Source: Candidatus Hecatella orcuttiae (GTDB lineage Archaea > Thermoproteota > Bathyarchaeia > Hecatellales > Hecatellaceae). From it: a stretch of 64,000 nt of DNA. A model generated the notes under the pieces. That model had not been told where the DNA came from. It searched no databases and saw only the letters and a program-made list of their open reading frames with translations. This document shows positions 30,943-49,997 of this stretch, piece by piece (the stretch's first letter is position 1; each line of letters starts with the position of its first letter). A program made the position numbers and the translations under genes. The stretch covers positions 384,001 to 448,000 of the forward strand of contig MTLY02000002.1 in the NCBI GenBank assembly GCA_002011035.2, given 5' to 3'.

Positions 30943-31077
30943 GTGGGCGAATCTGTCACGTTGGAGATGGTCTACAGGGAGGTTAGAAGCATCAGGGGGA
31001 TGCTTGAGAAGGTTCGGAAGGGAGAGTACGTGGCGCTCGAAGAGGCTGAGAAGAAGCTGGGTTTTACTCGGATTTGA
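30943..31077 (+). pseudogene. Short antitoxin-like ORF, probably internally deleted
   Basis: MGESVTLEMVYREVRSIRGMLEKVRKGEYVALEEAEKKLGFTRI (44 aa); no partner toxin follows. Confidence 0.4.
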
Positions 31078-32044: not shown

Positions 32045-32052
32045 CTCCCAGA

Positions 32053-33468: not shown

Positions 33469-33601
33469 AAACTGGCACCCTCAGCAGTCTATTCTCACCA
33501 GCCTCTTATTATCTTTTATTTCAGCCTCCGCGCGGCTTAGTTTCACCTTCCTCTCAAGGCTATCTAGCGGAAGGACGCTAGAACTCTGAGGGGTCCCTTC
33601 C

Positions 33602-33811
33602 ATGCCTGTCCCCAAGGGCTACCCTGTGAGGATCACCCGGTGGAGCAGCACCAGCCGGGTGAAGAGAGGCCGGAAGAAATACTGGAAGCTCGTCTTGAAC
33701 TTCCCTCAGAAGATGGCCCCGGAGCTGGAGGACCTCTTGGGCAGGCCGGCTGTGGCTTGGAGGGAAGGCAGCAGGGTCATCATCCAATTTCAGCTAGCTG
33801 GGAACCCCTGA
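33602..33811 (+). CDS. Small basic protein, possible AbrB-like DNA-binding protein
   Basis: 69 aa; KRGRKKYWKLVLNFPQKMA pattern; first gene of the cluster. Confidence 0.45.
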   Translation: MPVPKGYPVRITRWSSTSRVKRGRKKYWKLVLNFPQKMAPELEDLLGRPAVAWREGSRVIIQFQLAGNP

Positions 33812-33958
33812 GGGAGAACACCCCGCCTCCACGCCTCCTTCCACACGTCCATGTAAATCCCCCTCATATCCTCACACCCCTCCCGTTTTCCCAAGGGGGC
33901 TTCTCGCTAGCGGAGGCAAATTCCCCCAGCCCCCGACTTCCCCACCCTTCACAGGGCT

Positions 33959-34332
33959 GTGTCGAAAACCCTAAAAGCCCACCCATGCCCTAGGGAGGTT
34001 GCTGAAAAGGGTCGGGTGCACCGGAAACCCAGCCGCTGGAACCCGCAGGCCTTGGGGCCGGCGGGGCATGGGGCGGCCTTCCGCCTAAGCCAGCTTCCTT
34101 TCTCACCCGGCCTTCAGGGTTTTCTCCGAGGTGACGGCTTCTGGGAAGTCATCGGAACCTCTACCTCCGCCACCTCCGCCGGGAGGCGGAGAGGCTGTTC
34201 AAGGAAGCCTACCACGACCGGGAGAAGGCGGAGCTGGTGGCCCTAGCCGACTACCCGCTGCTGGACATCCGGAGGGGGGAGGTGCTGCGAAACCCCCACT
34301 ACGTCAACCCCAGCCTGGAGCGCCTCCTCTGA
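33959..34332 (+). pseudogene. Probable frameshifted hypothetical gene
   Basis: ...GFLRGDGFWEVIG joins, by a one-base shift near 34155, a start-less protein-like frame NLYLRHLRREAERLFKEAYHD...NPSLERLL ending TGA at 34332. Confidence 0.45.
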
Positions 34333-35141
34333 CAGCCCGGCCCAAAGGCCGGTGGGGTCTCCCCCACAGGCTTTTCCAAGGCCCCGCCTACCAGGGCGCC
34401 GCCGGGCCCGTGGCTGTGGAGGCGGACGAGGAGAAGATAGCCCTCCGTCTTCAAGCCTACCGGCTCTGGCCCCAGCGGACGGTGGTGGACCTCTACGCGG
34501 GGAAGGGCTTCCTCAGCTGGCTCTACGCCCGGGAAGGCTGTGAGCGGCTCATCTGCGTGGAGAAGAACCCTGAATATTTTGCGGTGTTGAAGCGGAACTT
34601 GGCGGAGTTCGGTGAGAGGGTGAAGCTGGTCCGGGCGGACAACCTCCGATGGCTGGAGCGAGGTGGGCTGTCCCCCGAGGAGCCGGTGACCTTCGTGGAC
34701 TTCGACGCCTTCGGCATCCCCGCCCGGCTGCTGCAGCGGTTCTTCACCGTCCACCCCATTCGGAGGGCTTTGGTGATGGCGGTCACCGACGGGCTGCTGT
34801 TCAACTTCCGGCGGATGAGCAACGCTGACCTCCGTAGGCTTTACCTGCAGGATTTTTATTTGGGCGGCGAAGCCGGGCGGCCGCTGAGCATCCAAGACCT
34901 GGGGGAGTACGCTTTCCAGATCCAGCGGACGCTGCTGGACATCTTGGCCATGCGCCACGGAGCCCAAGCCTACCCTCTCTATTTCAAGGTGAACCGCCGC
35001 TGCACCGTCGCCTACTCCGCCTATTTGGTCCTGCCCAAATTCGTGGGCGCTGTGGACTTTAAGCGCTATGTAGGTTTGAGGAGGGTGAAGACGGGGAGTG
35101 CCGCAGTATCCTTCGAGGGAAGTCTTGGACAGGCTGGCTAG
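34329..35141 (+). CDS. Class I SAM-dependent methyltransferase
   Basis: VVDLYAGKG motif I, CVEKN, VDFDAFGIP. Start uncertain (CTG 34329 or GTG near 34410); the track N-terminus from 34131 looks spurious. Confidence 0.75.
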   Translation: MTARPKGRWGLPHRLFQGPAYQGAAGPVAVEADEEKIALRLQAYRLWPQRTVVDLYAGKGFLSWLYAREGCERLICVEKNPEYFAVLKRNLAEFGERVKLVRADNLRWLERGGLSPEEPVTFVDFDAFGIPARLLQRFFTVHPIRRALVMAVTDGLLFNFRRMSNADLRRLYLQDFYLGGEAGRPLSIQDLGEYAFQIQRTLLDILAMRHGAQAYPLYFKVNRRCTVAYSAYLVLPKFVGAVDFKRYVGLRRVKTGSAAVSFEGSLGQAG

Positions 35142-35496
35142 GCTTCAGCCGGACCACTACGTGGAGGTCACGTGGAGCGACGCCTGCGAGATGCGGGACG
35201 CGACTCCGGAGGACATCGAACGCGACTACCACACCACCATCCTGTGCTCAGGCCGGGTGTACGGGGTCCGAGGCGACTACCTCATCCTCGTCAGCGAGGA
35301 AACCTTCTACGGCTACCGGTTCCTCAGCATCCCCATCGGCGTCATCCAGAAGCTGCGCATCCTCACCCGGAAGCCGCGGAAGAGGCCCCTCCGCATCCTC
35401 AAGGCCGGAGTCGCCTACAAGGTGGTCTACGTCTATGTCAAGCCCGGGGAAAAGTCTCAGGTTGACGTTAAAGGACTTCGCCTTGTACGAGCATGA
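35098..35496 (+). CDS. Small beta-barrel (Sm-like) virus-type protein
   Basis: VEVTWSDA...CSGRV...YLIL...IPIGVIQKL pattern common in phage hypothetical proteins. Confidence 0.5.
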   Translation: MPQYPSREVLDRLARLQPDHYVEVTWSDACEMRDATPEDIERDYHTTILCSGRVYGVRGDYLILVSEETFYGYRFLSIPIGVIQKLRILTRKPRKRPLRILKAGVAYKVVYVYVKPGEKSQVDVKGLRLVRA

Positions 35497-36034
35497 CTGG
35501 AGGGGCATCATCGCCCTCACCCTCGTCGCAGGGTACATCCTCCTCCTCTGGGCTCAGGTTCCCGGCATCGAAGTCCTCTCCGTGGCCGTCGGCCTGGTGG
35601 TAGGCTGGTACTTCGGCCTCCAGCAGCACCCCCAGCCCCGGCCGTGGGCGGAGCCGTCGGTTCCCCTCAAGCTCCGGCGGGCGACGGTGAAACATCCGGC
35701 GTTCAAATCCATCAAAACCCGACTGGTCGAAGCCCTCCGGCAGACGGGCTGCTACGACCCTGCCTTCGACGATATGGTGGTCGACGAGGTTGTTAAGTCC
35801 ATCATCGACATCCGCACTGTTGACCGCTATGTGGAAGGCGCCAAAGACCTCCGGGAGCTCGCTGAGGCCTTCAACGCCAAGGCGACTATAACCCGAATAC
35901 TCTACCAAGCTGTGGAGCAACTGGCCGTAACTCGGCGAGGCCGGCTGAAGAGAAAAGACATGGAAGGCTTCAAGGACACTCTCTTCACCCGTCTCAGGGA
36001 GCTGACATCCGCATCCGAGAACAATGCGCGATAG
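35435..36034 (+). CDS. Two-TM holin-like domain fused to a terminase-small-subunit-like domain
   Basis: TM pair ending GWYFG; C-terminus LRQTGCYDPAFDDMVVD...EQLAVTRRGR resembles P27-type TerS; lies upstream of TerL. Confidence 0.55.
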   Translation: MSSPGKSLRLTLKDFALYEHDWRGIIALTLVAGYILLLWAQVPGIEVLSVAVGLVVGWYFGLQQHPQPRPWAEPSVPLKLRRATVKHPAFKSIKTRLVEALRQTGCYDPAFDDMVVDEVVKSIIDIRTVDRYVEGAKDLRELAEAFNAKATITRILYQAVEQLAVTRRGRLKRKDMEGFKDTLFTRLRELTSASENNAR

Positions 36035-36261
36035 TGGCATATGGTGGCATGGTTTTGGGCGGAAAGACGAGGGTTAATTTAACGCTCGACAGCCTTCTGG
36101 TCAAAGCCATCGACCAGGTTCGCGGCCCCATCAGCCGGAGCAGCTTTATTCAAGCGCTGATCGAGGAGGCTCTGAAGAGTGTTCCCCGTGAGCGTCGAAG
36201 AGGCTTGGCTAAGGGCGAGGAGAGATCCAAGCTTCTTCGCGGGGTGGCTGCTCAGGCTTAG
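36034..36261 (+). CDS. Ribbon-helix-helix (CopG-like) regulator
   Basis: KTRVNLTLDSLLVKAIDQVRGPISRSSFIQALIEEAL. Confidence 0.75.
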   Translation: MAYGGMVLGGKTRVNLTLDSLLVKAIDQVRGPISRSSFIQALIEEALKSVPRERRRGLAKGEERSKLLRGVAAQA

Positions 36262-37501
36262 GCCCACAGCCTACCAGGCCAGGTTCCTCACCGACATGAG
36301 CAAGCGGCAGGTGTTGAAGTGGAGCCGGCAGAGCGGAAAGTCCACCTGCCTCGCCGTCAAAGCCTTGTGGTTCGCCATCTTCCACCCTCAAACCACCACC
36401 CTTATCATCTCTCCGTCTCTCAGGCAGTCGATAAACTTGAGGGATATTGTCGCCGGCCTCGTCGAAAGGCTGCCCCAAGATGCCAGGAAGAACTTGGTGG
36501 AGAAAACCTTGAGAACGACCCTCTACCTCTGGCGGGGCAGCCGCATCCTCGCACTGCCCGCAAACCCAAACACGCTCCGCGGCTTCACGGCTCACATGGT
36601 CCTCGTCGATGAGGCGGATTTCTTCCAAAACCCTGAGGCCATCTTCTACGGCACCGTTTACCCCATGCTGACCACCACCGACGGCTGGCTGATAGTCAGC
36701 TCCACCCCATGGACCACCAAGGGCTTCTTCCACCGCATCTGCCAGCCCGGCAGCGGCTACACGCACCACTTCATCAACTGGCGCGACGCGGTGCAGGCGG
36801 GAGTGGCCCGGGAGGCGGTTATCCGCGAGGCCATGGAACGCAACCCGCCGGAGGTCTTCCGCAGGGAGTACGAGTGCGAGTTCGTGGAGGACGTCGACGT
36901 CTTCCTGCCCTCGGACCTCATCGCCCGCTGCATCGACTCGCAGCTGGAGTACACGCCCTTCGAGGCTGAAGCCCGGGGTGAGTTCTACGTGGGATGCGAC
37001 TTCGGCAAGCACCAGGACTACTCGGTGGTGGCCGTGGTGGAGAAAAAGGACGACGTGATTTCCCTAGTCCACCTTCACAGGTTTCCACTGGAGACCCCCT
37101 ACGCCTCGGTCATCGGCTACGTGAAAGCCCTGTGCGACCGGTGGCGCAGCGTCGCCGCGGTGCGCCCTGACATGACCGGGGTGGGCGACTTCATCGTGGA
37201 AGAAATGCAGCGGGCTGGAATCCCCAGCGTGGAAGGCGTCAAGTTCACCCGCGAAAGCAAAGAGGCCATAGCCGTGCCGGTGAAGCAGGCTATGATTTCA
37301 GGGCGTGTTCGCATCCCCTACGACCGGGACCTCATCGCTGAGCTCAACGTGGAACGCTATGAGATGTCGAAAGACGGCCACTATGTTTTCAGCCACCCCG
37401 AGCGAAGCCACGACGACCGCTTCTGGGCCTTCTGCCTCGCCGCCCACGCCGCCCTCGGCAGGGGCGAAGGAGGAGCCATCATAGGGGGTGTCCGTCGATG
37501 A
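36179..37501 (+). CDS. terL: Terminase large subunit
   Basis: Walker A SRQSGKST, Walker B VLVDEA, SSTP, nuclease GCDFGKHQDYS and HDDRFWA. Confidence 0.95.
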   Translation: MFPVSVEEAWLRARRDPSFFAGWLLRLRPTAYQARFLTDMSKRQVLKWSRQSGKSTCLAVKALWFAIFHPQTTTLIISPSLRQSINLRDIVAGLVERLPQDARKNLVEKTLRTTLYLWRGSRILALPANPNTLRGFTAHMVLVDEADFFQNPEAIFYGTVYPMLTTTDGWLIVSSTPWTTKGFFHRICQPGSGYTHHFINWRDAVQAGVAREAVIREAMERNPPEVFRREYECEFVEDVDVFLPSDLIARCIDSQLEYTPFEAEARGEFYVGCDFGKHQDYSVVAVVEKKDDVISLVHLHRFPLETPYASVIGYVKALCDRWRSVAAVRPDMTGVGDFIVEEMQRAGIPSVEGVKFTRESKEAIAVPVKQAMISGRVRIPYDRDLIAELNVERYEMSKDGHYVFSHPERSHDDRFWAFCLAAHAALGRGEGGAIIGGVRR

Positions 37502-38709
37502 CCCTGTGGGGAAAAATCAAAAACTGGTTCACCGCCAGCGAAGCCCAAGGCTTGGAGGAGAAAGCCCGAGGCCTCGTCGCCGGGGTCCCTTCCGTCTGGG
37601 GCCGAGGGCAGAAGGCACCCTTCAGCTTCCAAACCTGCTTCGAACGCTACGAGAACGTAGGCTTGGTCACCGCGGCTGTGGACGCTACAGCGGAGATGAT
37701 CGCAGGCCCAGGCTACCACACCGAGGGCGTCGGTGAAGCCAAGCGTGTGGTGGACGACTTCGCGGAGGAGGTCAACCTCGACGGCCTGCTCATGGACGCG
37801 GTGCTGGACTGCGCCATCTGCGGCAACTCGTGGGTGGAGAAGGTGGTGGAGGACGGCCTCATCGTCGGCCTCAACTACCTCGACCCACTGAGCATGGAGC
37901 AGAGCATCATCCTCAAGAAGGCCCCCGGAGGCTTCGACCTCTACCACAACCAGGTGGAAGGCTACGTGCAGACCGTCCGAGGCAGGAAGACAGCCCAGTG
38001 GCCTGCGGACCGCATCATCCACTTCACCTGGAACCGGCCCCGCGGCAGCCTCTACGGCACAGGCATGGTGAAGCCTGTGGAAGCCTACCTGCAGACCATC
38101 CTCGAAGCCGAGCAGGACATGGGCAAGATCATCAAACGCTACGCCGCCCCCAAGGTGGCTTGGATGCTGCAGGACGCGGGGAAGACGGTTTTCGACGAGG
38201 TGAAGCGGCAGCTCCGCACCGTGCAGCCGGACGAGGACTACGTCATCGCCACCACCGGGAAGACGAGAATCGACGCCCAAGTCATCCAGATTGACCCCCG
38301 CAGCCGCTTCGAGTACTTCTTCAACCACATCACCAACGCCATCATGGCCGGGTTGGAGTGCCCCATCACCTTCCTCTTCCGCGGCGACGTGAGGGTCTCA
38401 GACGCCTCCGCCACGGCCATGCTTCAAGCCTTCGACCGGAAAATCCGCATGAAGCAGCGCCGGTTCAAACGCATCATCGAAGCCCAGCTTTTCCGCCCGC
38501 TGGTCCGGCAGCACGGCCACAGCGAAGTCCCCCGCCTGGTCTGGGGACCTGTGGAGGTGGAGACCTTGGAGGACAAGCTCAAGAAGTGGACGGAGCTGCT
38601 TTCCAGCCGCCTCAGCCTCAGGGATGAAACCCGCCGCGCCCTCGAGGATGAAATGATGAAAGACCTAGGCCTTCAGTCTACCGCAGAAGAGAGGAGTGAA
38701 GATGCCTAA
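37498..38709 (+). CDS. Portal protein
   Basis: Position after TerL, 403 aa, ICGNSWVE, IIHFTWN...YGTG, IEAQLFRPL. Confidence 0.88.
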   Translation: MTLWGKIKNWFTASEAQGLEEKARGLVAGVPSVWGRGQKAPFSFQTCFERYENVGLVTAAVDATAEMIAGPGYHTEGVGEAKRVVDDFAEEVNLDGLLMDAVLDCAICGNSWVEKVVEDGLIVGLNYLDPLSMEQSIILKKAPGGFDLYHNQVEGYVQTVRGRKTAQWPADRIIHFTWNRPRGSLYGTGMVKPVEAYLQTILEAEQDMGKIIKRYAAPKVAWMLQDAGKTVFDEVKRQLRTVQPDEDYVIATTGKTRIDAQVIQIDPRSRFEYFFNHITNAIMAGLECPITFLFRGDVRVSDASATAMLQAFDRKIRMKQRRFKRIIEAQLFRPLVRQHGHSEVPRLVWGPVEVETLEDKLKKWTELLSSRLSLRDETRRALEDEMMKDLGLQSTAEERSEDA

Positions 38710-39448
38710 GCATCCTGACTTCGAAAAAATCCACCGCGACTTCCTAAGCCGCTACGGAGCCGAGGAGGGGGAAAGACGCTACTACGCCTGGCTCCGCAGC
38801 CGCAGCCTCGACGACACCCAGCCCTTGGGCTCCCAGCGCGCTAAGCTGGAGGAAGGCACCGCCTTCCAGTGGGCTAACACCCTCGACTGGGTGGGGCAGC
38901 CCAACCGCATCCGAGGCCTCGCCCTCACCCCCGGCTCCAGCCTCAACCGCAACCTCTACCCGGAGGAGGAGCTGGCCAAGGCAGCCAGAACGCTGGCGGG
39001 GAAACCCATCTACGTCAACCACCTCCACACCGGGACAGCTGTCCCCGGGCAGGCTCAGCCGCAGGTAGGCCGGGTGCTGGACGCGGAGTACATCCCCGGC
39101 CGAGGCATCGAATACGTGGGCGCCGTCGAAGACCCCGCTGTTTGGAGGCTCATCCGAAGCGGCCTGATCACAAAGGTGAGCGTGGCGGGAAGATGCCGCT
39201 CCGCCCTCCCCGTCGACGGGGTGAAGCCGGAGGGGCTCATGTTCGAGGAGCTGAGCCTCCTCTGGGGGGAGGAACAGCCCGGTGTCCCCGGCGCCTACGT
39301 CCAAGTTTGGGAAAAGCTCAGCCCCAGGGGAAGGGCGAAGCCGCTGGGCCTAGGCCTCCGGGAAGGCCCTGAACCCGCGCAGCCGCCCACTCCAGACCTT
39401 TGGGGGGCTAGGCTGAGGGACGTGCTGCCTTCCAAGGCAAGGCGGTGA
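38696..39448 (+). CDS. Prohead maturation protease
   Basis: SLNRNLYPEEEL...GKPIYVNH...VGRV...VSVAG...FEELSL...PG, assemblin/HK97-like protease pattern. Confidence 0.8.
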   Translation: MKMPKHPDFEKIHRDFLSRYGAEEGERRYYAWLRSRSLDDTQPLGSQRAKLEEGTAFQWANTLDWVGQPNRIRGLALTPGSSLNRNLYPEEELAKAARTLAGKPIYVNHLHTGTAVPGQAQPQVGRVLDAEYIPGRGIEYVGAVEDPAVWRLIRSGLITKVSVAGRCRSALPVDGVKPEGLMFEELSLLWGEEQPGVPGAYVQVWEKLSPRGRAKPLGLGLREGPEPAQPPTPDLWGARLRDVLPSKARR

Positions 39449-39467
39449 AGCTGATTTTTCACGGTCA

Positions 39468-39540
39468 CAGCCATGACGGCAGCCCAGCCGCGTCGGTTGG
39501 GCCTACGCCGGAGCTTGACGGCTGAGGGGGATACTCCCCT
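39468..39540 (+). ncRNA. Candidate structured intergenic RNA element
   Basis: Nested pairings CAGCC/GGCTG, CGGC/GCCG, GCCCAGCCG/CGGTTGGGC, plus hairpin AGGGGG-ATAC-TCCCCT. Confidence 0.4.
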
Positions 39541-39579
39541 GCCTTAGTGTGGGAGAGCAAAAGTTTGGGAGAAAGAAAC

Positions 39580-39987
39580 ATGACCAGTCAAGGCGACGTG
39601 TACACCCTAGGCATCGTGCTAGACCTCAGAGCCGGAGGAGCCATCGCCAAAGGAGAACCTGTCAAAACCGGCGCCGCCGACGGCAAGGTTGTCGCAGCCT
39701 CCGACGGAGACGACCCCGTAGGCGTGGCCCTGAAGGCCGCCAGCGCCGACGGAGACCCCGTGCCCGTCATGGTTTCCGGAGCCGTCTACCTGACGGCCGC
39801 CGCGGCCATCAGCCGGGGGGAAGCCGTTCAGCCGGCGGGGTCCCAGAAGGTGAAAGCCCTCGCCGACCAGCCGGTGGACGAAGGAGGCACCGCCACCTAC
39901 ACTGTCTACTACCAGAAGAAGCTGGGCATCGCCTTGGAAGCCGCTTCCGCGGACGGAGACGTCATCCTCGTCCAGCTGGCCCTCTAA
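39580..39987 (+). CDS. Capsid decoration/cement protein (DUF2190-like)
   Basis: Gly/Ala-rich AGGAIAKGEPV...VGVALKAASADGDPVPV...GIALEAASADGDVILV with internal repeat; directly before MCP. Confidence 0.75.
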   Translation: MTSQGDVYTLGIVLDLRAGGAIAKGEPVKTGAADGKVVAASDGDDPVGVALKAASADGDPVPVMVSGAVYLTAAAAISRGEAVQPAGSQKVKALADQPVDEGGTATYTVYYQKKLGIALEAASADGDVILVQLAL

Positions 39988-40001
39988 GGCGGTGAAGCGC
40001 C

Positions 40002-40991
40002 GTGCAGAAGATTCTAGAAACAGGAGTTAAGGTGGCTAAGGAAGACATGGCTGTTCGAAGGCTGGAGGAAAAACTTCAGACTCCCCTGCTTTCAGGGCGG
40101 ACCCTCCACGAAGCCCAGCGGGTCCTCCACCAGCGCACCGAAGCCATGCTTAAAGACCGACATCTCCGCGAGGTCCTCCTAAGCGACCAGTCGCAGGCCA
40201 CGGCCAAGGTTCTGGACATCGTCTGGGAGGCGGCCAAGCCCCGGCTCATCGGCCGGGAGCTCTGCGCGGTCTTCGTCAAGGAAGACCCGTCCCTGAAGGT
40301 GCCCCGGCATAAGACCTTGGTCTCAGCCCGCTACCCGGTGGCGGAGGGCGCTGACATCCCTGTGAACGTGGGAGCTTTCGACTCGGTGACCCTGACCCCT
40401 GAAAAGTCCGGGGTAGCCGTGCCCATCAGCCGGGAGATGATCGAAGACGCCGCGTGGGATGTCGTGGAGTTCCAGCTCCGCGAAGCCGGCCGAGCCATGG
40501 CCGAGGTGGAAACAGAGCGGATCATCGCCCAGATGATCGCTGACGCAGGGAACTCCGCGGCTGCAGCCACAGCTGGGACGCTGGCCTACGACGACATCGT
40601 GGGCATGATCAACCTCATCCAAGCCGACAACTTCCTCCAAGACTACATCCAAACCGGCCGAGGCTACTTGGTGGTGCACCCCGACCAGTACGCCGACCTC
40701 CTCAAGGACTCCAGCGTGAAGCAGGCTCACTCTTGGGGCGGCATCGCCGTGGCGCCCACAGGCCGCTTGGAGACCATCTTAGGCCTCAACCTCCGGGTGA
40801 CCACCAAGATCACCAGCGGCACCGCCCTGGTCGTCGACGCGGAGCACGCGGGAGCTCTGTTTATCCGAAGGGACATCACCGTGGAAAACTACGAAGACCC
40901 GATTAAGGACCTGGCCGGAGCCGTGCTGACAGCCCGGTGGAAGTACGCGACGATGCAGGCGAACGCCATAGGCAAGATCACAGGAGCCTAA
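40002..40991 (+). CDS. Major capsid protein, HK97 fold
   Basis: VAEGADIP, KSGVAVPISREMIEDAAWDVV, LVVHP, ILGLNLRVT; 329 aa. Confidence 0.92.
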   Translation: MQKILETGVKVAKEDMAVRRLEEKLQTPLLSGRTLHEAQRVLHQRTEAMLKDRHLREVLLSDQSQATAKVLDIVWEAAKPRLIGRELCAVFVKEDPSLKVPRHKTLVSARYPVAEGADIPVNVGAFDSVTLTPEKSGVAVPISREMIEDAAWDVVEFQLREAGRAMAEVETERIIAQMIADAGNSAAAATAGTLAYDDIVGMINLIQADNFLQDYIQTGRGYLVVHPDQYADLLKDSSVKQAHSWGGIAVAPTGRLETILGLNLRVTTKITSGTALVVDAEHAGALFIRRDITVENYEDPIKDLAGAVLTARWKYATMQANAIGKITGA

Positions 40992-41044
40992 GCCTAAACC
41001 ACCCGTTTTCTTCCGGCGGTTCTTTTCCCGTGAAAAAGCAACCG

Positions 41045-41056
41045 CCCCTTTTTTTA
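41045..41056 (+). terminator. Oligo-T terminator after the capsid gene
   Basis: CCCCTTTTTTT about 55 nt after the MCP stop. Confidence 0.5.
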
Positions 41057-41083
41057 TCGCTTCCAAAAATCACGTGAGTTAGG

Positions 41084-41356
41084 TTGAAGGTTAAAACCGG
41101 CGTCTGCCCCCGGTGTGGAACCCGCTACTACCAGCGAGGCGACCGCCTTTACATCTGCGACTGCATGCTCACCAAGCCCGACGGGTCCCTCATGGCCGCC
41201 TACGACCCCGCCGTCGACAGCCTCAGCTACGGCTCTAGGGCTATGCAGAAAATCCGAAACCCTGAGGACCGGAGTCGGAGAAGTTGGAGGGTTCACTTCT
41301 GGGACGGCGGCGAGAAGAACGAAGAAAACCGCCCGGTGGAGGTGAAGATGAAATGA
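41084..41356 (+). CDS. Small Cys-rich (CxxC...CxC) protein
   Basis: CPRCG...CDC; 90 aa. Confidence 0.5.
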   Translation: MKVKTGVCPRCGTRYYQRGDRLYICDCMLTKPDGSLMAAYDPAVDSLSYGSRAMQKIRNPEDRSRRSWRVHFWDGGEKNEENRPVEVKMK

Positions 41357-41421
41357 CCTCCCCGAGGGAAAAAATCTTTAAGCACAACCCGCGGATATAT
41401 TACCCAGCCGGGTGAAAAATT

Positions 41422-41490
41422 CTGGCTAAGAAAAAAGCTAAGAAAACCAAGGCTAAAGGCTCCGCTAAATCCAAAGGCAGAAAGTGCTAG
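41422..41490 (+). CDS. 22-aa lysine-rich micropeptide with CTG start
   Basis: TATA-like GAAAAAATCTTTAAG, SD GGTGA, CTG, MAKKKAKKTKAKGSAKSKGRKC, T-tract at 41519-41530. Confidence 0.6.
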   Translation: MAKKKAKKTKAKGSAKSKGRKC

Positions 41491-41553
41491 CCGGACCGCC
41501 TTCAACCTCCCTCCCCTATTTTTTTTCTTTCCCCGTCCACTCGAGGTGAACTC

Positions 41554-41871
41554 ATGGGCTATTCAACTCTGAACGCTGTCAAAGAGCGCTTGGGCATCGA
41601 CCCAGCGGACACCACCCAGGACACGGTGCTGACCAACAAGATCGCCGCGGCGGACGCCATCATCGACAACGTCCTCCAAGCCTACACGGACGTACCTCTG
41701 GCTTCGCCGCCTCAGCTCATCCAAGACATCAGCGCCGACCTAGCCGCAGCGCTCTACCGCGAAGACCGAGGCCCCCCGGAGGCCGGCGGCGCATTCCGCC
41801 AGCGGGCTGAGAAGGCTTTGGAAGCCTACATCACCCAAACCTACCGCCAAGTAGGATTCGAAAAAACTTAG
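41554..41871 (+). CDS. Head-tail adaptor (gp6/gp15-like)
   Basis: YSTLNAVKERLGI...DTVLTNKIAAADAIID...PQLI; SD GAGGTGA. Confidence 0.8.
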   Translation: MGYSTLNAVKERLGIDPADTTQDTVLTNKIAAADAIIDNVLQAYTDVPLASPPQLIQDISADLAAALYREDRGPPEAGGAFRQRAEKALEAYITQTYRQVGFEKT

Positions 41872-41888
41872 ACGGCTGAAGGCTGAAG

Positions 41889-42317
41889 ATGGCCACCGTC
41901 AAGGTTGATGCCTCCGCAGCCCGCCGCCTGCTGGAGGCCTTGAAAGAACACTCCGACAGGGTTCAGGCTGAGTTTCTCCGGCAAGGCGCCCGGCTGACGG
42001 TGGAGGAGATGAAGCGGAAGGCTCCCGTGCGAACAGGCGCCCTGAGGCGGTCGATAGGCGTCAGGGCGGTGGAGGGAGGTAGGGTTGCCGTCAGCCCCGC
42101 GGTGCCCTACTGGCACGCGGTGGAACGAGGAGCCAAGCCGCGGGTAATTCTCCCCAAGCGGGGGAAGGTTCTTGCCTTTGAAGTCGACGGCCGGCCGGTG
42201 TTCGCCCGCCGGGCCCGGTGGCCAGGGTTTCCGGGGCGTTTCTTCGTCAGGGCGACGGAGCAGGCTGTGAGACCCAAGCTCCGGCAGCTGCTACTCCAGT
42301 TGATGAAGAAGCGTTGA
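41889..42317 (+). CDS. HK97 gp10-like neck/tail-completion protein
   Basis: APVRTGALRRSI...YWHAVERG...PG..GRFFVR. Confidence 0.85.
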   Translation: MATVKVDASAARRLLEALKEHSDRVQAEFLRQGARLTVEEMKRKAPVRTGALRRSIGVRAVEGGRVAVSPAVPYWHAVERGAKPRVILPKRGKVLAFEVDGRPVFARRARWPGFPGRFFVRATEQAVRPKLRQLLLQLMKKR

Positions 42318-42392
42318 CATCTTCCGCATGGTCGGATGAAAATTTCCTTTCGAACATACTAAACAGTTCTTTTCCAGTGGACGGGAGACATC

Positions 42393-42813
42393 ATGTACAA
42401 GGAGATTGTGCAGAAAATCATCGACCTGCTGAAGGCGGACGCCGCCCTCTCGGAGCCGGCTAAGGTGAAAAAGTATTACTTCGGCATCCCCCCCGGAGGC
42501 GAAGGCCGGCTACCCGTGGGTCAGCGTCCGCTGGGCGGGGGGTCCCGTCGAAACCGAGACAGCCCGGAAGGAGCGGTACCAGATGGATTTTGAGATCAGG
42601 GTGGTGGACCAGTCCTACCGGGAGGACACGGCGGAGAAGTCGGTGATGGACCTGGTGGAGGACATCGACCGGGTGCTGGACGCTAACCCCACGCTGGACG
42701 GGCTGGTGGACGACTGCCGCATCGTCAACATCGCCTCAGAGACCATGGCCTCAGGCTCCTACGCCCTAGTGGGCGCCCTCATCACCCTCACGGCTAGGAA
42801 AACACAGCTCTAA
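42393..42813 (+). pseudogene. Tail terminator-like gene split by a one-base frameshift in a C7 run
   Basis: MYKEIVQKIIDLLKAD...YYFGIPP continues as EAKAGYPWVSVRW...MDFEIRVVD...NPTLDGLV if the C-run at 42488-42494 is 6 rather than 7. Confidence 0.7.
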
Positions 42814-42832
42814 AAGGAGGTGAAACAGGCAA

Positions 42833-43759
42833 ATGGCTGAAAGATACATAGTAGTAGGCGAAGAAACCACCTTCGGCTCGCCGGTGACCCCTGACAAGTA
42901 CATCGACATCCGCCGGGAGGCTGTGGTTTTCGACGTCGGCGTCATCCCCGTCGAAACCGTGTACAGCCGGGACACCCGCAAATACGTGTTCGGCAAGGCC
43001 CTAGCCCGAGGGCCCATCGACTTTGCCGTGGAGCCGGAGAACGTGGCCCACCTGTTCAAGTGGGCGCTGGGCAGTGTGACTACCAGCGGGGCAGGACCCT
43101 ACACCCACGACTTCACCCCGGCGGACACCGTGAAAAGCTTCACCGCCATCATCAACCCGGAGCAGGAGACCTACGGCTTCTTCCGAAAACTCAGCGGCTG
43201 CCTGGTGGAGCGGCTGACCCTCGAATCCGCCCTCGACGTGCTCACCGGCTCCGTGGAAATCGTGGCAGCAAAGGAAGAAAAAGACACAGCCTTCACTCCG
43301 TCGGTTTCCCTCTCCCCGCTGGCGCCCTTCGTCTTCCACGAAGCCACCCTGACACTGGGCGGTGCCGACAAGTCCAGCGTCCTCAAAGCCTTCAGGCTGA
43401 CGGTAGGCAACAACCTGCCCGTCGACGACATGTACGCCCACGGCGACAAGCATCTACGCCGCATCCTCGTGGGCCGGCGGGAGGTGGAGGTGCAGATGGA
43501 GCTGGCCTTCGAGGACTCCGCGGACTACGACCGCCTGCTGGCGGGGACGGAGGTGGCGGCTTCCCTCAGCTTCGTCAAGACCGCGGGCAGCGCTGAGCTG
43601 CTCATCGACCTCCCCCGCATGGTCTACCACAGCGACGTGGCGCCGCACATCGCGGGAAGGGACCCCTTCACCGTCGTGGCCCCCTGCCAAGTGCTCTACG
43701 ACTCCGCCGCCGGCTATGAGGTGAAGATTCAGGTCAAAAACAACGTGGCCGGCTACTGA
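42833..43759 (+). CDS. Major tail tube protein
   Basis: GEETTFGS, YTHDFTP, KSFTA, GCLVERLTL; position between neck and chaperone; no sheath gene. Confidence 0.82.
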   Translation: MAERYIVVGEETTFGSPVTPDKYIDIRREAVVFDVGVIPVETVYSRDTRKYVFGKALARGPIDFAVEPENVAHLFKWALGSVTTSGAGPYTHDFTPADTVKSFTAIINPEQETYGFFRKLSGCLVERLTLESALDVLTGSVEIVAAKEEKDTAFTPSVSLSPLAPFVFHEATLTLGGADKSSVLKAFRLTVGNNLPVDDMYAHGDKHLRRILVGRREVEVQMELAFEDSADYDRLLAGTEVAASLSFVKTAGSAELLIDLPRMVYHSDVAPHIAGRDPFTVVAPCQVLYDSAAGYEVKIQVKNNVAGY

Positions 43760-43786
43760 CCGCCAAGAGTTTTCAGGTGAACGGAC

Positions 43787-44381
43787 ATGTCTGCGGAGAC
43801 GCCTGCAAGAAGGCTCAGTGTGAAGGAATGGCGGGAAAGCCTAGTCCGCACGGTGGAGGCGCCCAGCGGGCTGACCTACCAAGTCCGCCTGCTGACCTCG
43901 CCCCTCCCCTTCCTGAGGCTTCTCCGAAAGCACGGCTTAGAAGGCGTGGGGGAAGCTCAGGCGGAAAGCTTGGATGTGGCTGAGAAGTCCGACGCCCTGC
44001 TGAGGGACCTCTTCGCCGAATACGTCCTAAACCCCAAGGTGGCGGAGGGCGGGGGAGCTGAAGGCGAAGAACGCTTGGCTTTCTCGGAGATGCTGGAGGA
44101 GGACAAGGCAGTCCTCTTCAACGCCATAGCCGAGAAGTTCCGTTTTCTTCGCAGCGAAGACAGCCAGCCCCCTCACCCCAGCCCTGCTGGGGGAAGCTCT
44201 CCTCCTCCTAGGCGGGCTGCTGGGGGAAGCCTACCACCGCCTCCCCAGCCGGGTTCTCGCCCTCCCAGCCGAGGAGCTGGCTCTCAACTGGACCTGCCTC
44301 CAAGAGGCTAAGAGGGCCTTGGCCCAAGCCTCCAGCCTCAGCGCTGAGATCCGTCGACGCCGGGGGGAGCTGGGCCTCTAG
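43787..44381 (+). CDS. Tail assembly chaperone G (43787-44311) with a probable +1 frameshift GT product ending 44381
   Basis: TTT-C at 44144-44147; the +1 frame is open to TAG 44381 and is protein-like (GEAYHRLPSRVLALPAEELALNW). Confidence 0.7.
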
Positions 44382-44391
44382 CAGGTGGACG

Positions 44392-44637
44392 GTGGAGGAT
44401 GTGAAGCTTCGAACCGGCTTGGGAGCCGTCTTATGGGCGGTGGGCGTGGGGCTCATGGCGGAGAAGCTGCTTCGCTACGGGGCTCTCTACACCTATCCTC
44501 CCCACCTCTTGGACCACGGCCTCTACGGCCTCATTTTGGTCGCCTTATCCCTGCTCCTGCTGTCCAAGCAGGAGAAGCCGGTCCGGGGTGGGGCTCTCCG
44601 AAGGCCGGAGGACGGAGTAACCGCGGCCGGAGGCTAG
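44392..44637 (+). CDS. Small two-TM membrane protein (holin-like or accessory)
   Basis: Two hydrophobic segments around PPHLLDHGLYG. Confidence 0.55.
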   Translation: MEDVKLRTGLGAVLWAVGVGLMAEKLLRYGALYTYPPHLLDHGLYGLILVALSLLLLSKQEKPVRGGALRRPEDGVTAAGG

Positions 44638-44786
44638 GTTTTCAAGTCTGGAAACCAGATGGCGTAGCTTCCGCACTTCCAGCAGCGGCTGCCGGTGACG
44701 ACGAACAGGCGGCCGCCTTTGATTTCAACCTTGGTGTCTCCTGGTATTTCCCTGACCTCCCCGCAGGAGGCGCATTTGACCTTCAT
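44634..44786 (-). CDS. 50-aa zinc-ribbon protein, antisense within the tail region
   Basis: SD GGAGG, ATG; MKVKCASCGEV...SRCWKCGSYAIWFPDLKT; below the ORF track cutoff. Confidence 0.7.
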   Translation of the reverse strand: MKVKCASCGEVREIPGDTKVEIKGGRLFVVTGSRCWKCGSYAIWFPDLKT

Positions 44787-44850
44787 GGCCTCCCCTAAAA
44801 TGATTCGCGAAACTCAGCCCTTTAACTCTTTCAGCAACCCCGGTCCTTGG

Positions 44851-44997
44851 GTGGTGAAGACGGCCGCGGAGCAGATAGGTGACATTCTGAAAAACGCCAG
44901 GGACCTAGGCTACAGGCTGCTGGTCATCCAAACCCGCAGCCGGCTGTTCGCTGTCCCCCTCAAATCCATCCGAGAGGTTAGGCTGGTGAAAAAATGA
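44851..44997 (+). CDS. Small hypothetical protein coupled to the tape measure gene
   Basis: GTG start; MVKTAAEQIGDILKNARDLGYRLLVIQ...; ATGA overlap with TMP. Confidence 0.5.
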   Translation: MVKTAAEQIGDILKNARDLGYRLLVIQTRSRLFAVPLKSIREVRLVKK

Positions 44998-46340: not shown

Positions 46341-48173
46341 ATGGCCCGATTCACCGTCAAGATAGCCGGCGTGGACTACCCGTTCACAGCCCTGACCCTC
46401 CGCCAGTCGGTTGACCCCCCTGACGAGTTCACCGTGGAGCTGCCCAAGGTGGAGGCAGCGCCGGCCTTCGAAGACCCCGTGGACATCTACAGGGACGGGG
46501 TGAAAATCTTCAGCGGCCTCCTGGAACGCCGGCAGGCGGTGTTCGGGGAGGAAGGCGAGAGGCTGGTCCTAGGGTCTAGGGACCTCAGCCAGAAGCTGTT
46601 CCGCCACCTCACCGGCGCGCAGACGTGGACTGAGACCAAAGTCCGCACCATCCTCCAAGACCTCATCGCCGGCACAGGCCTGACCGAGGGGGCGATCGCC
46701 GACCCCTTCCAAGTGTGGCACCGGTGGCTTCAGACCACGGACGCAGACTTCGGCGGCGACGTCCTGACGGATGTGGAGGTTGCTGGGACGGGGACGGCGG
46801 CTAAAGTCGTGCTAACCTACGCGGGTGCAACCAAGACAGGAAACATCAAGTCGACGTTGATAGCGCCTGTAAACTGGCAAAGTTGGATTGAATTTAATGC
46901 TGCTGTGGATGAAAAAAACCAAACCATCACCTTCGACATCTTGGATTCGGCGGACAACACGCTTGTAGGCGGCATCACACCAGCTCAGCTGCCCTACGAC
47001 CTATCCGCCCTAGCAGAGTCATCCCTAAAGGTCAGATGCAACCTGACGGCAGCCCCTTGGGTTGATGGAACCGCCCTAGAAAGCAGCACGGGTGTCATTT
47101 ACGCATCATATCCTCGGCGAGGCCAGAAGATTACTGTGCCCAACAAAACCCTCCACACAATAATTTTCGCCATCCACAAGGAAGGCAGCCCCACCGGTAC
47201 GGCGTATCTGAGGATAAGAAGAACCTCAGACGATTCGATTATCTACGAGGAAAGCTTCGACGTTGCCTCTCTTCCTACCGATTCTGGGAATTGGCAGGTT
47301 TTCAAACTCACTAATCCTCCTACCGTCAACGAAGAAGTTAGAATTATGGTTGAATATTATGGCGGCTCCACTGACAACTGGATCAGGATGAGACGTTACA
47401 GAAACTCCTACGGGGAAAACTGGGAAGGCGTCGAAACAAGCTACGATGGAACAGCCTACACGGACGACAGCACCGCCGACAGCAACATCGTCATCCACGA
47501 CAAACCCAGCCCCGAACTCCTAGAATGGTCCGTCACCCACCACAGCGACTACACCGACTTCACCGTGGACTACGAATACCGGTTTGAAGCCGTCAACCGG
47601 CTGGCCGCCATGCTGGGAGCCGAATGGTGGGTGGACTCCGCGGGAGCCCTCCACTTCCAACCCCAAAGGGGCTCCGACCTTTCTGGGACGGTGCGCTACC
47701 AAGCGGAGCGGGATGTAACCGTCTCCCGGGTTACGGAAACCTTCCAGCTGGCCAACCGTATCACCGTCATCGGAGCCGGGGAAGCTGCCAGCCGGGTGGA
47801 GGAGACGGAGGAAGACCCGGCTAGCCAGGCAGCCTATGGGCTGCATGAAGCCGTCTACGTGGACAAGGAAATCGACACCGCGGACGCAGCTAGGACCACG
47901 GCTCAGAACCTCCTAGCCAAGTACAAGGACCCCGTGGAGAAGATCGTCCTCCAAGTCCTCCCCGTCTACGACTTCCAAGTAGGCGACATCATCACCGTCA
48001 CCGACCCCCACACCGGGCTGGAGGGCAGCTACCGGGTGAAGGTCAAGACCATCAGGTTCACAGCCGAAGAAGGGGAGCAGTGGGAGCTGGAGCTGGCCAC
48101 CCGCCTCACCGACCTCCCCGACGAACTGCTCAAGACAGGCCAGCTGCAACGCTGGCTCAAGGGGTTAGCCTGA
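46341..48173 (+). CDS. Tail-tip hub (Tal/gp27-like) protein with inserted beta-sandwich domains
   Basis: IYRDGVKIFSG...GSRDL; EWWVDSAGALHF; NRITVIGAG...SQAAYGLHE; FQVGDIITV. Confidence 0.78.
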   Translation: MARFTVKIAGVDYPFTALTLRQSVDPPDEFTVELPKVEAAPAFEDPVDIYRDGVKIFSGLLERRQAVFGEEGERLVLGSRDLSQKLFRHLTGAQTWTETKVRTILQDLIAGTGLTEGAIADPFQVWHRWLQTTDADFGGDVLTDVEVAGTGTAAKVVLTYAGATKTGNIKSTLIAPVNWQSWIEFNAAVDEKNQTITFDILDSADNTLVGGITPAQLPYDLSALAESSLKVRCNLTAAPWVDGTALESSTGVIYASYPRRGQKITVPNKTLHTIIFAIHKEGSPTGTAYLRIRRTSDDSIIYEESFDVASLPTDSGNWQVFKLTNPPTVNEEVRIMVEYYGGSTDNWIRMRRYRNSYGENWEGVETSYDGTAYTDDSTADSNIVIHDKPSPELLEWSVTHHSDYTDFTVDYEYRFEAVNRLAAMLGAEWWVDSAGALHFQPQRGSDLSGTVRYQAERDVTVSRVTETFQLANRITVIGAGEAASRVEETEEDPASQAAYGLHEAVYVDKEIDTADAARTTAQNLLAKYKDPVEKIVLQVLPVYDFQVGDIITVTDPHTGLEGSYRVKVKTIRFTAEEGEQWELELATRLTDLPDELLKTGQLQRWLKGLA

Positions 48174-48174
48174 G

Positions 48175-48390
48175 TTGAAGCTCCGCAATCCCCGCAGCCG
48201 CCCCTACCAAGTCACCGTCCGAGGCCGAAGGTGGGTGATCCCGGCTAAGGCGGTGGTGGAGGTCCCCGACAGGCTGGCGGAGGCCATCCTCGCCACCCGG
48301 GCCTCCCGCTTTCTCCAGCAGGAGAACCCCCCTGTCTCCGACCTCCAAGAGGAGGTAAGGAGGATCAAGGCCTACCTGAGGTTGAGGTAG
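48175..48390 (+). CDS. Small hypothetical tail-region protein
   Basis: 71 aa, tightly packed between tail genes; C-terminal short coiled coil. Confidence 0.55.
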   Translation: MKLRNPRSRPYQVTVRGRRWVIPAKAVVEVPDRLAEAILATRASRFLQQENPPVSDLQEEVRRIKAYLRLR

Positions 48391-48391
48391 C

Positions 48392-49846
48392 ATGACGGCT
48401 CCCAAGGTCAAAATCGGCATGGACAGCAACACCCTCGACCTGCTGGCCGCGGGCAACGTCCACCGCCTAACCCGCCATCCGCTGAAGACCTTCAGCCGCC
48501 GGAAGGTGGCCGGAGGCGAAGTGCACCTGCCCAGCCTAGGCCCCGCTGAAACCCTTCACATCCTCGAAGGCTGGCTGGACGGGTCGGAGGCGCAGGCCAA
48601 CCTCCAGAAGCTGCTAAACCTCTACCACAGCCAAGAGCTCACCGCCTTGGAGACGGCGAAATACGAGGCCTTCGGCAAGCTTACGGACTTGGAGATTCCC
48701 TACCAAGGCGGAGAGACCGCCGTCCGCTACCGCCTCGAACTCACCGAGCTGCCGGCTTGGGGCCGCACAGCGGTCAACCAGGGCACCGACGCCTACTTGG
48801 CTGACTTAGACTACGCGGCTCTGCGCAGCCAGCTGTTCAGCCCCCTCTGGGCCCGGCATGGATGGAGCTGGGACCGCGGCGGGAAGAAGTTCGCCTACGA
48901 ATTCATCCTCGTCAACGCCCTCGAGGAAACCTCACCTGCGGTTCTCTACGACGACGATGAGGCGTTTTGGTCGACGACGGGATGGGGCTCAGGCTCCAGC
49001 GCTGCCTCCCTGACCGAGGAGTCAACCGTTGTGAAGAAGGGAACTTCGTCAGCCAAAGTCTCCCAGACATCCGGCTCCTACGATGTGTTCGGAATCTACC
49101 ACAGCTGGGCCGCAGGGCAGGACTGGTCTGGCTACGAGTTCGTCGCCCTCTGGCTTTACGGCTCCAACAGCGGCGGAAAGATGGCCCTAGACATTAGGGC
49201 GCCTGATGCCTCCAACAAATACTTCGCTTACATCGACGACACTTGGACGGGGTGGAAGCGGCTGGTTTACCCGTTGAGAGCTATGCCGAAAGTCGGGTCG
49301 CCGGATTTGACAAACGTCAAAGCCGTCTATCTCACCACCGACGAGGGCAACCCATGGGCTCCCTTCTACCTCGACCGCATGGTGCTGGACGTGGGCCAGT
49401 GGGTTGCGGTGGAGGTCTTCGTCCCTGACACGCTAAACACGGCCGATATTAATGTGCGCCTGTATTCATGGGATGGGTCCGGCTGGGTCGTCGGCCCCGG
49501 GGTGGAAGCCACAGACCTGAGCCCTTGGTCTGCCGGCGTAGACCTGTACTTCCTCGACGGCACAAAGGCGAGCGAAGCCTACGGAGGCAACTGGTACAAC
49601 GACCAATTCGCCTACTACTCTCTAGGGGAGAGAGGCCAAACCCCCGGCAAATGGTCTTCACCGCCGCCAGACATCACCTACTCCCTCAACTACGGCTGCC
49701 TGAAACGCCTAGGCTTCGCCGTCAAAATGCCCCCCAGCACGCTGGCCCGCGACACCAGCGGCAGCCAAGCCGTCAACAAAACCCAGCTCAAGCTGGAAAT
49801 CACCTACAACTCAGAGCACACCACCTACGTCGACGGAAGCCTCTAG
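48392..49846 (+). CDS. Distal-tail-like N-terminal domain plus carbohydrate-binding-like domain (candidate adhesin)
   Basis: N-terminal ~120 aa Dit-like pattern (LEGWL...LQKLLNL...RYRLELTE); DWSGYEFVALWLYG...WTGWKRLVYP CBM-like jelly roll. Confidence 0.6.
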   Translation: MTAPKVKIGMDSNTLDLLAAGNVHRLTRHPLKTFSRRKVAGGEVHLPSLGPAETLHILEGWLDGSEAQANLQKLLNLYHSQELTALETAKYEAFGKLTDLEIPYQGGETAVRYRLELTELPAWGRTAVNQGTDAYLADLDYAALRSQLFSPLWARHGWSWDRGGKKFAYEFILVNALEETSPAVLYDDDEAFWSTTGWGSGSSAASLTEESTVVKKGTSSAKVSQTSGSYDVFGIYHSWAAGQDWSGYEFVALWLYGSNSGGKMALDIRAPDASNKYFAYIDDTWTGWKRLVYPLRAMPKVGSPDLTNVKAVYLTTDEGNPWAPFYLDRMVLDVGQWVAVEVFVPDTLNTADINVRLYSWDGSGWVVGPGVEATDLSPWSAGVDLYFLDGTKASEAYGGNWYNDQFAYYSLGERGQTPGKWSSPPPDITYSLNYGCLKRLGFAVKMPPSTLARDTSGSQAVNKTQLKLEITYNSEHTTYVDGSL

Positions 49847-49863
49847 CCCCTCCGGGGACAGCG

Positions 49864-49900: not shown

Positions 49901-49997
<97 letters not shown>

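Follow-up and report, generated by a model that had tools for sequence, protein, structure and literature searches.

The stretch of DNA analysed here, called the window, comprises 64,000 nucleotides (G000:C2:384001-448000) of the genome of Candidatus Hecatella orcuttiae (G000; 1.75 Mb in three contigs, C1 to C3, 97% complete) and lies on the 481-kb contig C2. On the + strand, between about 34.2 and 49.85 kb, it carries a co-oriented gene cluster of about 16 kb, which Pfam and PHROGs identify as a siphovirus-type head-tail set (Table 1). The hallmark trio of the Caudoviricetes, namely the HK97 capsid protein, the portal and the large terminase (TerL), is all found in the cluster. An initial annotation, made from the sequence alone, had described such a morphogenesis set, and the profiles bear it out in the main (the S78-like protease by the Atlas only). 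Its tail chaperone is assigned by position only, and a small terminase (TerS) was not recognised in the cluster; the first conserved gene is SAM-methyltransferase-like and not TerS-like as had been supposed. The host was taken to be a probable member of the Bathyarchaeia, in agreement with the related TerL genes, which come from Bathyarchaeia and Hecatellales, and with one homologue from Candidatus Hecatellaceae. An intact tRNA had been reported just after the last tail gene and is indeed present: the cluster ends at 49846, and tRNA-Ala(UGC) starts 55 nt further on, at 49901. This gene is detected by Rfam, while ARAGORN misses it and lists no tRNA anywhere in the window. In the relative G001 the orthologous tRNA has its insert after the anticodon rather than in the D-loop. 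In what follows G001, G002, G005, G007, G009 and G022 are genomes of relatives, L-numbers are loci of relatives, and g3, g5 and g6 are genera, G005 and G009 being two species of g6.

Table 1. Features of the head-tail cluster in the window, with the evidence for each assignment (aa, amino acids; ORF, open reading frame).
Feature	Position	Strand	Evidence and remarks
Basic small ORF, 69 aa; uncertain gene	33602..33811	+	In 850-nt gap after KaiC; no Pfam match; not conserved in relatives
SAM-dependent methyltransferase-like protein, putative	34131..35141	+	Conserved from ~34320; PF03602 2e-5, phrog_3820 2.6e-5
Remnant of conserved left-end small gene	34168..34332	+	C-terminal 45-51 residues left; no start codon before conserved stretch
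Conserved 132-aa protein, no family	35098..35496	+	76% identity in G001
Helical 199-aa protein, two hydrophobic N-terminal helices	35435..36034	+	14 homologues, 171-213 aa, none named
45-nt motif, two GTGGCAT words 10 nt apart	36025..36069	+	Second copy C3:494255-494300, 96% over 45 nt
Ribbon-helix-helix (RHH)-like 69-aa ORF, by eye	36052..36261	+	No significant Pfam match; absent from G001
TerL, large terminase	36179..37501	+	PF03237, PF17289; phrog_2 3.9e-48
Portal protein	37498..38709	+	phrog_9232 6.3e-19; PF04860 30.4 bits, below cut-off
Probable HK97-type (S78) prohead protease	38696..39448	+	Atlas only: feature score 0.93, structure rows naming Peptidase_S78
Cement/decoration protein	39547..39987	+	PF09956 4.1e-13; phrog_673
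HK97-fold major capsid protein	40002..40991	+	PF25209 1.6e-12, PF05065 1e-11; phrog_544
Conserved 90-aa protein, no family (Pfam, PHROGs)	41084..41356	+	62% identity in G001
Head-tail adaptor (gp6-like / Mu gp36-like)	41554..41871	+	PF07030, PF05135; phrog_195
HK97 gp10-like tail completion protein	41889..42317	+	PF04883 2.9e-10; phrog_5 8.4e-22
Tail terminator, split into 66- and 76-aa ORFs	42393..42813	+	phrog_20428
Tail tube protein	42833..43759	+	PF18906 6.9e-28; phrog_290
Conserved 174-aa protein; tail chaperone by position alone	43787..44311	+	35-41% identity in G002, G005, G009; no family
81-aa ORF, two hydrophobic stretches (by eye)	44392..44637	+	
Tape measure protein, 448 aa	44994..46340	+	PHROG only: phrog_1272 2.1e-6; 36-39% identity in G002, G005, G009
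Tail hub / Tal-like protein	46341..48173	+	PF06605 5.3e-11; phrog_1887
Tail fibre or receptor-binding protein, carbohydrate-binding-like middle domain	48392..49846	+	CBM_11 2.3e-5, 25 bits, below cut-off
tRNA-Ala(UGC), host gene, boundary marker	49901..49997	+	Rfam 56 bits, full length (model 1-71); 28-nt D-loop insert

The remnant at the left end is 62% identical to a 139-aa protein of G001 and 49% identical to a 104-aa protein of G002 (tblastn), and the remaining ORF has 31 aa. The methyltransferase-like protein is 52-64% identical in G001, G002, G009 and L130, and its matches to methylases in the PDB are weak. No family or named cluster was found for the 132-aa protein, for which the Atlas returns unnamed viral clusters only. 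Its ORF overlaps that of the 199-aa protein by 62 nt; being common to G001, this overlap is judged not to be decay. The 199-aa protein was modelled with an AlphaFold pLDDT of 74, and at E ≤ 0.001 no fold matches it; the small-terminase chain that appears at rank 22 (E 2.4) was discarded as meaningless. The protease-like gene has no Pfam match and no PDB sequence match. The last gene, encoding the fibre, is 38% identical in G002, and a host ORF at C1:430.7-431.0 kb has 32% identity to residues 207-322 of its product; this homologue of the middle domain is held in a low-GC island (0.35-0.43) at C1:408-432 kb. The 45-nt motif occurs in only two copies genome-wide at up to four mismatches in the core. 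The window copy stands at the start of the RHH-like ORF, before TerL, and the copy on C3 lies ~175-220 nt upstream of a 1141-aa secreted-looking protein that is followed by a collagen-repeat protein. The putative RHH-like protein and the motif may tie the cluster to a remote surface-protein locus. A second, decayed copy of the cluster near C3:494 kb was considered and rejected, as no remnant of cluster proteins is found there. ORFs 33640-33993 and 33959-34246 were rejected as genes, their translations being proline/glycine/arginine-rich junk.

Upstream of the cluster are KaiC, MEDS, NTPase and radical-SAM genes. Downstream are an AAA_14/DUF4143 ATPase gene in a low-GC patch, FTR1, CN-hydrolase, a radical-SAM gene and polD. 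The ATPase gene (window 50005-51504, GC 0.44) is on the opposite strand, directly after the tRNA. KaiC is not counted as part of the element because its orthologue in G001 (62% identity) sits on another contig than the cluster. In G000, G002 and G022 the KaiC-MEDS pair and the cluster are no more than 7 kb apart (window 31064-33468; L027 11006-12427; L029 15520-17279; L041 16183-18230), and a tRNA directly adjoins KaiC in G001 and G022, the cluster of G001 being on a different contig from KaiC.

Two apparent frameshifts had been proposed for the cluster, and one of them is true. One extra C in a run of seven (C7, 42488-42494) shifts the frame of the tail terminator, and six C would restore the frame of the homologues; in G009, G005 and G002 one uninterrupted ORF of 136-144 aa encodes the terminator. 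No second one was found, and a candidate G/GT frameshift in the chaperone was rejected (ORF 44385-44798 reads as junk, with no supporting frame). The C7 sequence of the terminator is present without gaps in Logan contigs of two public sequencing runs, X4 and X1. The set of essential structural genes is therefore not wholly intact in G000, its tail terminator being split; slippage at the C7 run could rescue the gene and is a candidate mechanism. Apart from the terminator and the left-end remnant, the cluster genes are full length against their homologues. A GC-rich stretch of ~500 nt at 33.8-34.2 kb has no credible ORF. The G000 copy may be crippled by the frameshift together with the eroded left-end gene. 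In G009 the protease is frameshifted at a run of A. A TGA in TerL of G007 was dropped as a sign of decay, as it falls in the upstream extension, outside the gene, and a 301-aa fusion in G009 is attributed to ORF calling or read-through, most homologues being separate and ~189 aa long.

Of the words sampled from window 33001-43000, half or more occur in each of eight public runs (X1-X8); no RNA run is listed among them, and four of the eight were examined as Logan contigs. In X1, which may be the source sample, one contig spans 31001-49996 with zero differences, at a depth of 310.9 (flank 329.5). The cluster is covered in pieces in X4 (depth 75-93.5, flanks 79-90) and X5 (13.6-16.8, flanks 13.6-18.4), and contigs of X1, X4 and X5 pass through the left junction or have flank-like depth. 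A comparison of coverage had been proposed as a check; the cluster has chromosomal depth, and neither an excision joint nor a contig skipping the cluster was seen in the contigs of the four runs, from which rare forms are dropped. In the same runs, contigs of a co-occurring organism share ~33 nt of the terminator gene (window 42398-42431, ~42505) and then diverge, one of them at twice the depth of the contigs of G000; they may represent a related cluster in a co-occurring archaeon. The codon style of the cluster had been described as GC-rich like that of core genes. This is correct locally, the GC content at third codon positions (GC3) being 0.79 in the cluster and 0.765 in the neighbours including polD (0.62 genome-wide), but with a GC content of 0.623 the cluster is still the richest of 426 16-kb windows (genome 0.519, flanks 0.59-0.60). 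A GC-rich stretch of ~60 kb (0.56-0.63; G000:C2:404-464 kb) holds both the cluster and polD.

TerL matches are found in 35 of the 61 genomes searched, G000 included, and in 9 of the 13 genomes of the family. At the DNA level 96 of 401 genomes of the class give matches (G000 included); among the listed matches from outside the family, these concern mostly TerL. Integrase-less clusters in relatives, the search for which had been suggested, are present in G001, G002, G009/G005 and L130. These and G000 are the five genera with an informative contig, and in all five a common left end, consisting of a small gene, the methyltransferase-like gene, genes for proteins of ~130 and ~200 aa, and TerL, abuts host genes. 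The host genes adjoining the cluster are different in every genus: on the left KaiC in G000, UDP-glucose dehydrogenase in G001, tRNA-Leu in G002, an SPL-like radical-SAM gene in G009/G005 and three host genes in L130. The G001 cluster (16.3 kb, on a 47-kb contig without integrase) has ribosomal protein S6e on its right side; its tRNA-Ala(UGC) is located 10.8 kb downstream in the same orientation and may be a trace of common ancestry or of a common target. No integrase lies inside the cluster unit in any of the five genera; on the G009 contig one lies 6 kb off, with a tRNA, an aminotransferase and two radical-SAM genes intervening. On comparison of these loci the compact, integrase-less layout is judged to be the native form of the family, since the left boundary is the same in five genera, each time beside other host genes, and five identical independent truncations are implausible. 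More distantly, G022 has a weak integrase match (24 bits) next to a tRNA-Arg at the tail end, plus a PLD-DEAD helicase, and in five near-complete genomes of other families a PF00589 match lies within 30 kb of 2 of 13 TerL loci. Other Bathyarchaeia genomes have 1-5 TerL loci apiece. In G022 two neighbouring ORFs, of 283 and 180 aa, make up a split TerL (L028 11651-13041; G022:C1:536651-538041), and G346 has a TerL divided in a similar way. A mini-cluster of 5.5 kb, with three small genes, TerL, two ORFs of ~484 aa and no tail genes, was also observed (L227/L228 G367:C1; L231/L232 G325:C9; L229/L230 G323:C3); it is syntenic in two species, with 81-95% identity (38% for one small gene), a level close to that of its flanks, and has another location in the third.

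Ranked first, and held tentatively, is the explanation that the cluster belongs to a lineage-specific family of virus-like elements of siphovirus type (HK97 fold) that are compact by nature, and that it resides in the chromosome as one quiescent copy. At ~16-20 kb, a native element would comprise the small gene and the methyltransferase-like gene, two to three small proteins, and a full head-tail set. Judging from the gene set, the S78-like protease would mature a portal-bearing HK97 procapsid, TerL would pump DNA into it and the cement protein would stabilise the head; the adaptor, the gp10-like protein and the terminator would join the head to a non-contractile tail made of tube, tape measure, hub and carbohydrate-binding fibre. 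Tail length follows a rule of ~0.15 nm per tape-measure residue, by which the 448-aa tape measure suggests a tail of roughly 65-70 nm. Replication and insertion would be supplied by the host, by other elements or by a gene that the tools do not recognise.

The family is read as a minimal temperate virus lineage because it appears mobile over evolutionary time, and six kinds of observation fit this: differing loci, mosaic modules, conflict between the TerL and host trees, lower divergence at synonymous sites (dS) in the cluster than in its flanks, patchy presence and host-like inserted genes. The cluster keeps one locus within g6 and occupies other loci between genera. Its head genes are 67-77% identical between G001 and G000, while the region from adaptor to tape measure is undetectable; TerL and portal of G009/G005 are 65-73% identical to those of G000, and the capsid protein just 31-33%. 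In G002 the capsid protein belongs to a different Pfam family, PF19821. On these alignments the modules are mosaic between genera. Median protein identity between G000 and G001 is 67% for the cluster and 55% for 36 host pairs. In the TerL tree G000 groups with G001 (support 89/89). Congruence of the trees had been proposed as a check; in the approximately unbiased (AU) test the TerL data reject the clade g6+g3 that polD supports (p 8.5e-5), although the groups tested were named after both trees had been inspected, and they reject neither G000 with g5 (p 0.18) nor monophyly of the family (p 0.077). Between G005 and G009 the median dS of the cluster is 0.58 (12 genes), against 0.89 and 0.88 for the SPL-like radical-SAM gene and the aminotransferase of the left flank and 0.87-2.27 for ten genes of the polD region; this contrast is a simple Nei-Gojobori count over 12 host genes from three short regions (ten genes in the polD region, two on the left flank). 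Patchy presence, which the initial annotation had named as an outcome that would count against a domesticated locus, is observed, close TerL (≥ 50% identity) occurring in 7 of the 13 family genomes. Both G009 and G005 have a host-like insertion, a DUF362-4Fe-4S (Fer4) gene, between TerL and portal, and G009, but not G005, has a reverse-strand N6_N4 DNA methylase gene before TerL (L023 9338-10294, L023 11908-12963 and L025 8335-9411).

A number of results weigh against this explanation, including the limits just given for the AU test and the dS contrast. The main hole in it is the absence of insertion and replication functions. The initial annotation had recognised no integrase, no helicase, primase or polymerase and no direct repeats, and the profile searches and repeat scans agree. 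The tyrosine recombinase family PF00589 has four matches in the genome, none of them on contig C2; PF16795 has a single weak match, on C3, and PF00665 and PF00239 have none in the genome. No replication family is found among the ORFs of 29.4-49.85 kb, nor was a lysogeny-control module recognised there, the sole candidate being the RHH-like ORF. Attachment (att) repeats were not found, the longest word common to both ends being 10 nt; direct-repeat scans, end-to-end word matching and BLAST of tRNA genes against the left end of the cluster (queries: the tRNA-Ala and the tRNA-Ala genes of G001 and G032) gave just chance matches of 10-13 nt, and a permissive Rfam scan of 33.3-34.4 kb showed no tRNA fragment. 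The proposed virus life cycle is thereby left without its key enzymes: neither a tyrosine or serine recombinase, nor a DDE transposase, nor a replication gene was recognised in the cluster, and no att repeat or fragment of a tRNA at its ends. An attempt to find the empty site met with badly broken synteny between genera, and a metagenome scan with KaiC returned one contig of 1.8 kb at 56% identity. No free viral genome of this type is among the IMG/VR matches, whose TerL identity is just 41-53%, and terminal repeats are absent from 80 IMG/VR loci (many partial) and from whole contigs. The 80 CRISPR spacers of G000, from two arrays with 37-nt repeats (C3:237818-239325, 21 copies; C3:699569-704026, 61 copies), do not match the cluster, its relatives or the IMG/VR loci, and a DNA search of undefined sensitivity found no spacer-like matches in 401 class genomes. 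The GC content of the cluster tracks that of each host (0.37-0.52 in relatives, 0.62 in G000) and in G000 matches the local GC-rich region, not the genome mean; the element has long resided in each host lineage or accompanied it. Within g6 the clusters of G005 and G009 are at one locus, where a block of 81% DNA identity spans the host radical-SAM gene and the first cluster genes. Purifying selection, another of the proposed checks, is evident there, with a median omega of 0.15 for 12 cluster genes and 0.12 for ten host genes; selection was measured in g6 only, the DNA of G000 and G001 (67-69% identical) being too diverged for dS. On these sequences the shared locus and host-like omega fit vertical inheritance under host-level selection equally well. 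Native compactness, purifying selection, stability of the locus within the genus and host-like composition are the points that fit retention by the host.

When the signs of mobility are weighed against those of retention, the virus-like family is placed first, and the domesticated particle locus that the initial annotation had proposed second, as a somewhat unlikely explanation. In this case the host would keep the cluster, in the manner of a gene transfer agent (GTA) or of PBSX, for particles that package host DNA, with regulation, lysis and perhaps further parts encoded elsewhere. Its structure-only anatomy stands (neither recombinase nor replication gene in the 16 kb, and no recombinase on the whole contig), as do the purifying selection and common locus in g6; the same compact unit in five genera, GC and GC3 matching the local host context, chromosomal depth with no excision joint in the contigs of four runs, and a motif common to a remote locus encoding surface proteins also agree with it, and its size is like that of the 15-kb region of RcGTA, the GTA of Rhodobacter capsulatus (PMC13669383). 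It does not sit well with the other locus in every genus, the mosaic modules, the rejection of the host clade by TerL, the cluster dS below that of flanking host genes, the patchy presence, the host-like genes inserted in G009/G005, the frameshifts in the terminator of G000 and the protease of G009, or the multiple copies of the TerL family in other genomes, and the packaging of host DNA in it is hypothetical. It is also rather doubtful that Hecatellaceae-like Bathyarchaeia carry domesticated GTA-like loci that are kept by host-level selection across speciation while swapping modules with viruses, which would be the first in Thermoproteota.

The alternative to domestication named in the initial annotation, a truncated provirus, would make the cluster the decaying rest of a larger element that had shed its integrase and its replication module; this is now weakened and considered improbable. 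One frameshift, one eroded small gene, the ~500 nt without credible ORF at the left end and the integrases near distant relatives (G022 and 2 of 13 TerL loci) would agree with it. It would need five identical truncations, however, and all other genes are full length; an omega of 0.15 maintained over a dS of ~0.6 in g6, with a single frameshift, does not indicate neutral decay. Simple decay is thus rejected by the evidence, and domestication is not established. Least probable, and very unlikely, is a satellite-like element that forms its own virion and relies on a helper provirus or on a host Xer recombinase for insertion and replication. Signs of mobility without a recombinase, and four tyrosine recombinase genes elsewhere in G000, speak for such an element; against it, neither a helper nor a common att site was found, and the portion of the literature on Bathyarchaeia viruses that was covered contains no precedent. 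The virus-like family remains the preferred explanation.

Bathyarchaeia are abundant in anoxic sediments, and their gene exchange is largely unknown because few of them have been grown in culture. Should the cluster be a minimal resident virus, then at ~16 kb and with no integrase or replication genes of its own it would rank with the smallest genomes of tailed viruses, and its insertion would have to follow a new route; should it instead be a tamed particle-maker, it would add to the archaea a second lineage that has a GTA-like system. Whichever holds, a defined gene set is now in hand. With capsid protein, portal and TerL present, the cluster differs from tailocins, which have tail genes only. 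Capsid-forming phage-inducible chromosomal islands (PICI) have an integrase as well as genes for capsid and packaging, and lack tail genes; the cluster has a full tail set and no integrase. PBSX-type defective prophages and VSH-1 of Brachyspira are chromosomal loci for phage-like particles without a working integration or replication module, and by this general description the cluster is like them. RcGTA-type clusters are described as vertically inherited. Unlike RcGTA, the Hecatella cluster is mosaic, has loci that differ by genus and a TerL in conflict with the host tree, and adds a methyltransferase-like gene and a cement protein. The gene order of RcGTA is as in the cluster: terminase, portal, protease, capsid, connectors, tube, tape measure and hub. 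RcGTA is, like the cluster, a head-tail set without integrase or replication genes; its size is ~15 kb (PMC13669383). The VTA of Methanococcus voltae, named as an archaeal GTA (PMC11409702), has in common with the cluster that its host is an archaeon and that its particle is conceived as derived from a virus, the likeness being one of description only. No report of a GTA in Bathyarchaeia was found in the covered parts of the literature on Bathyarchaeia proviruses and archaeal GTAs (PMC10848311, PMC11705971, PMC13573593, PMC13669383). The Kunpengvirus has an integrase, an MCM-like helicase and a family B polymerase, and the cluster is without all three (PMC10848311). The head-tailed Bathyarchaeia viruses described as 'Fuxiviridae', 'Kunpengviridae' and BATPV proviruses have the same host class as the cluster and, like it, possess the Caudoviricetes hallmark genes (PMC10848311, PMC11705971).

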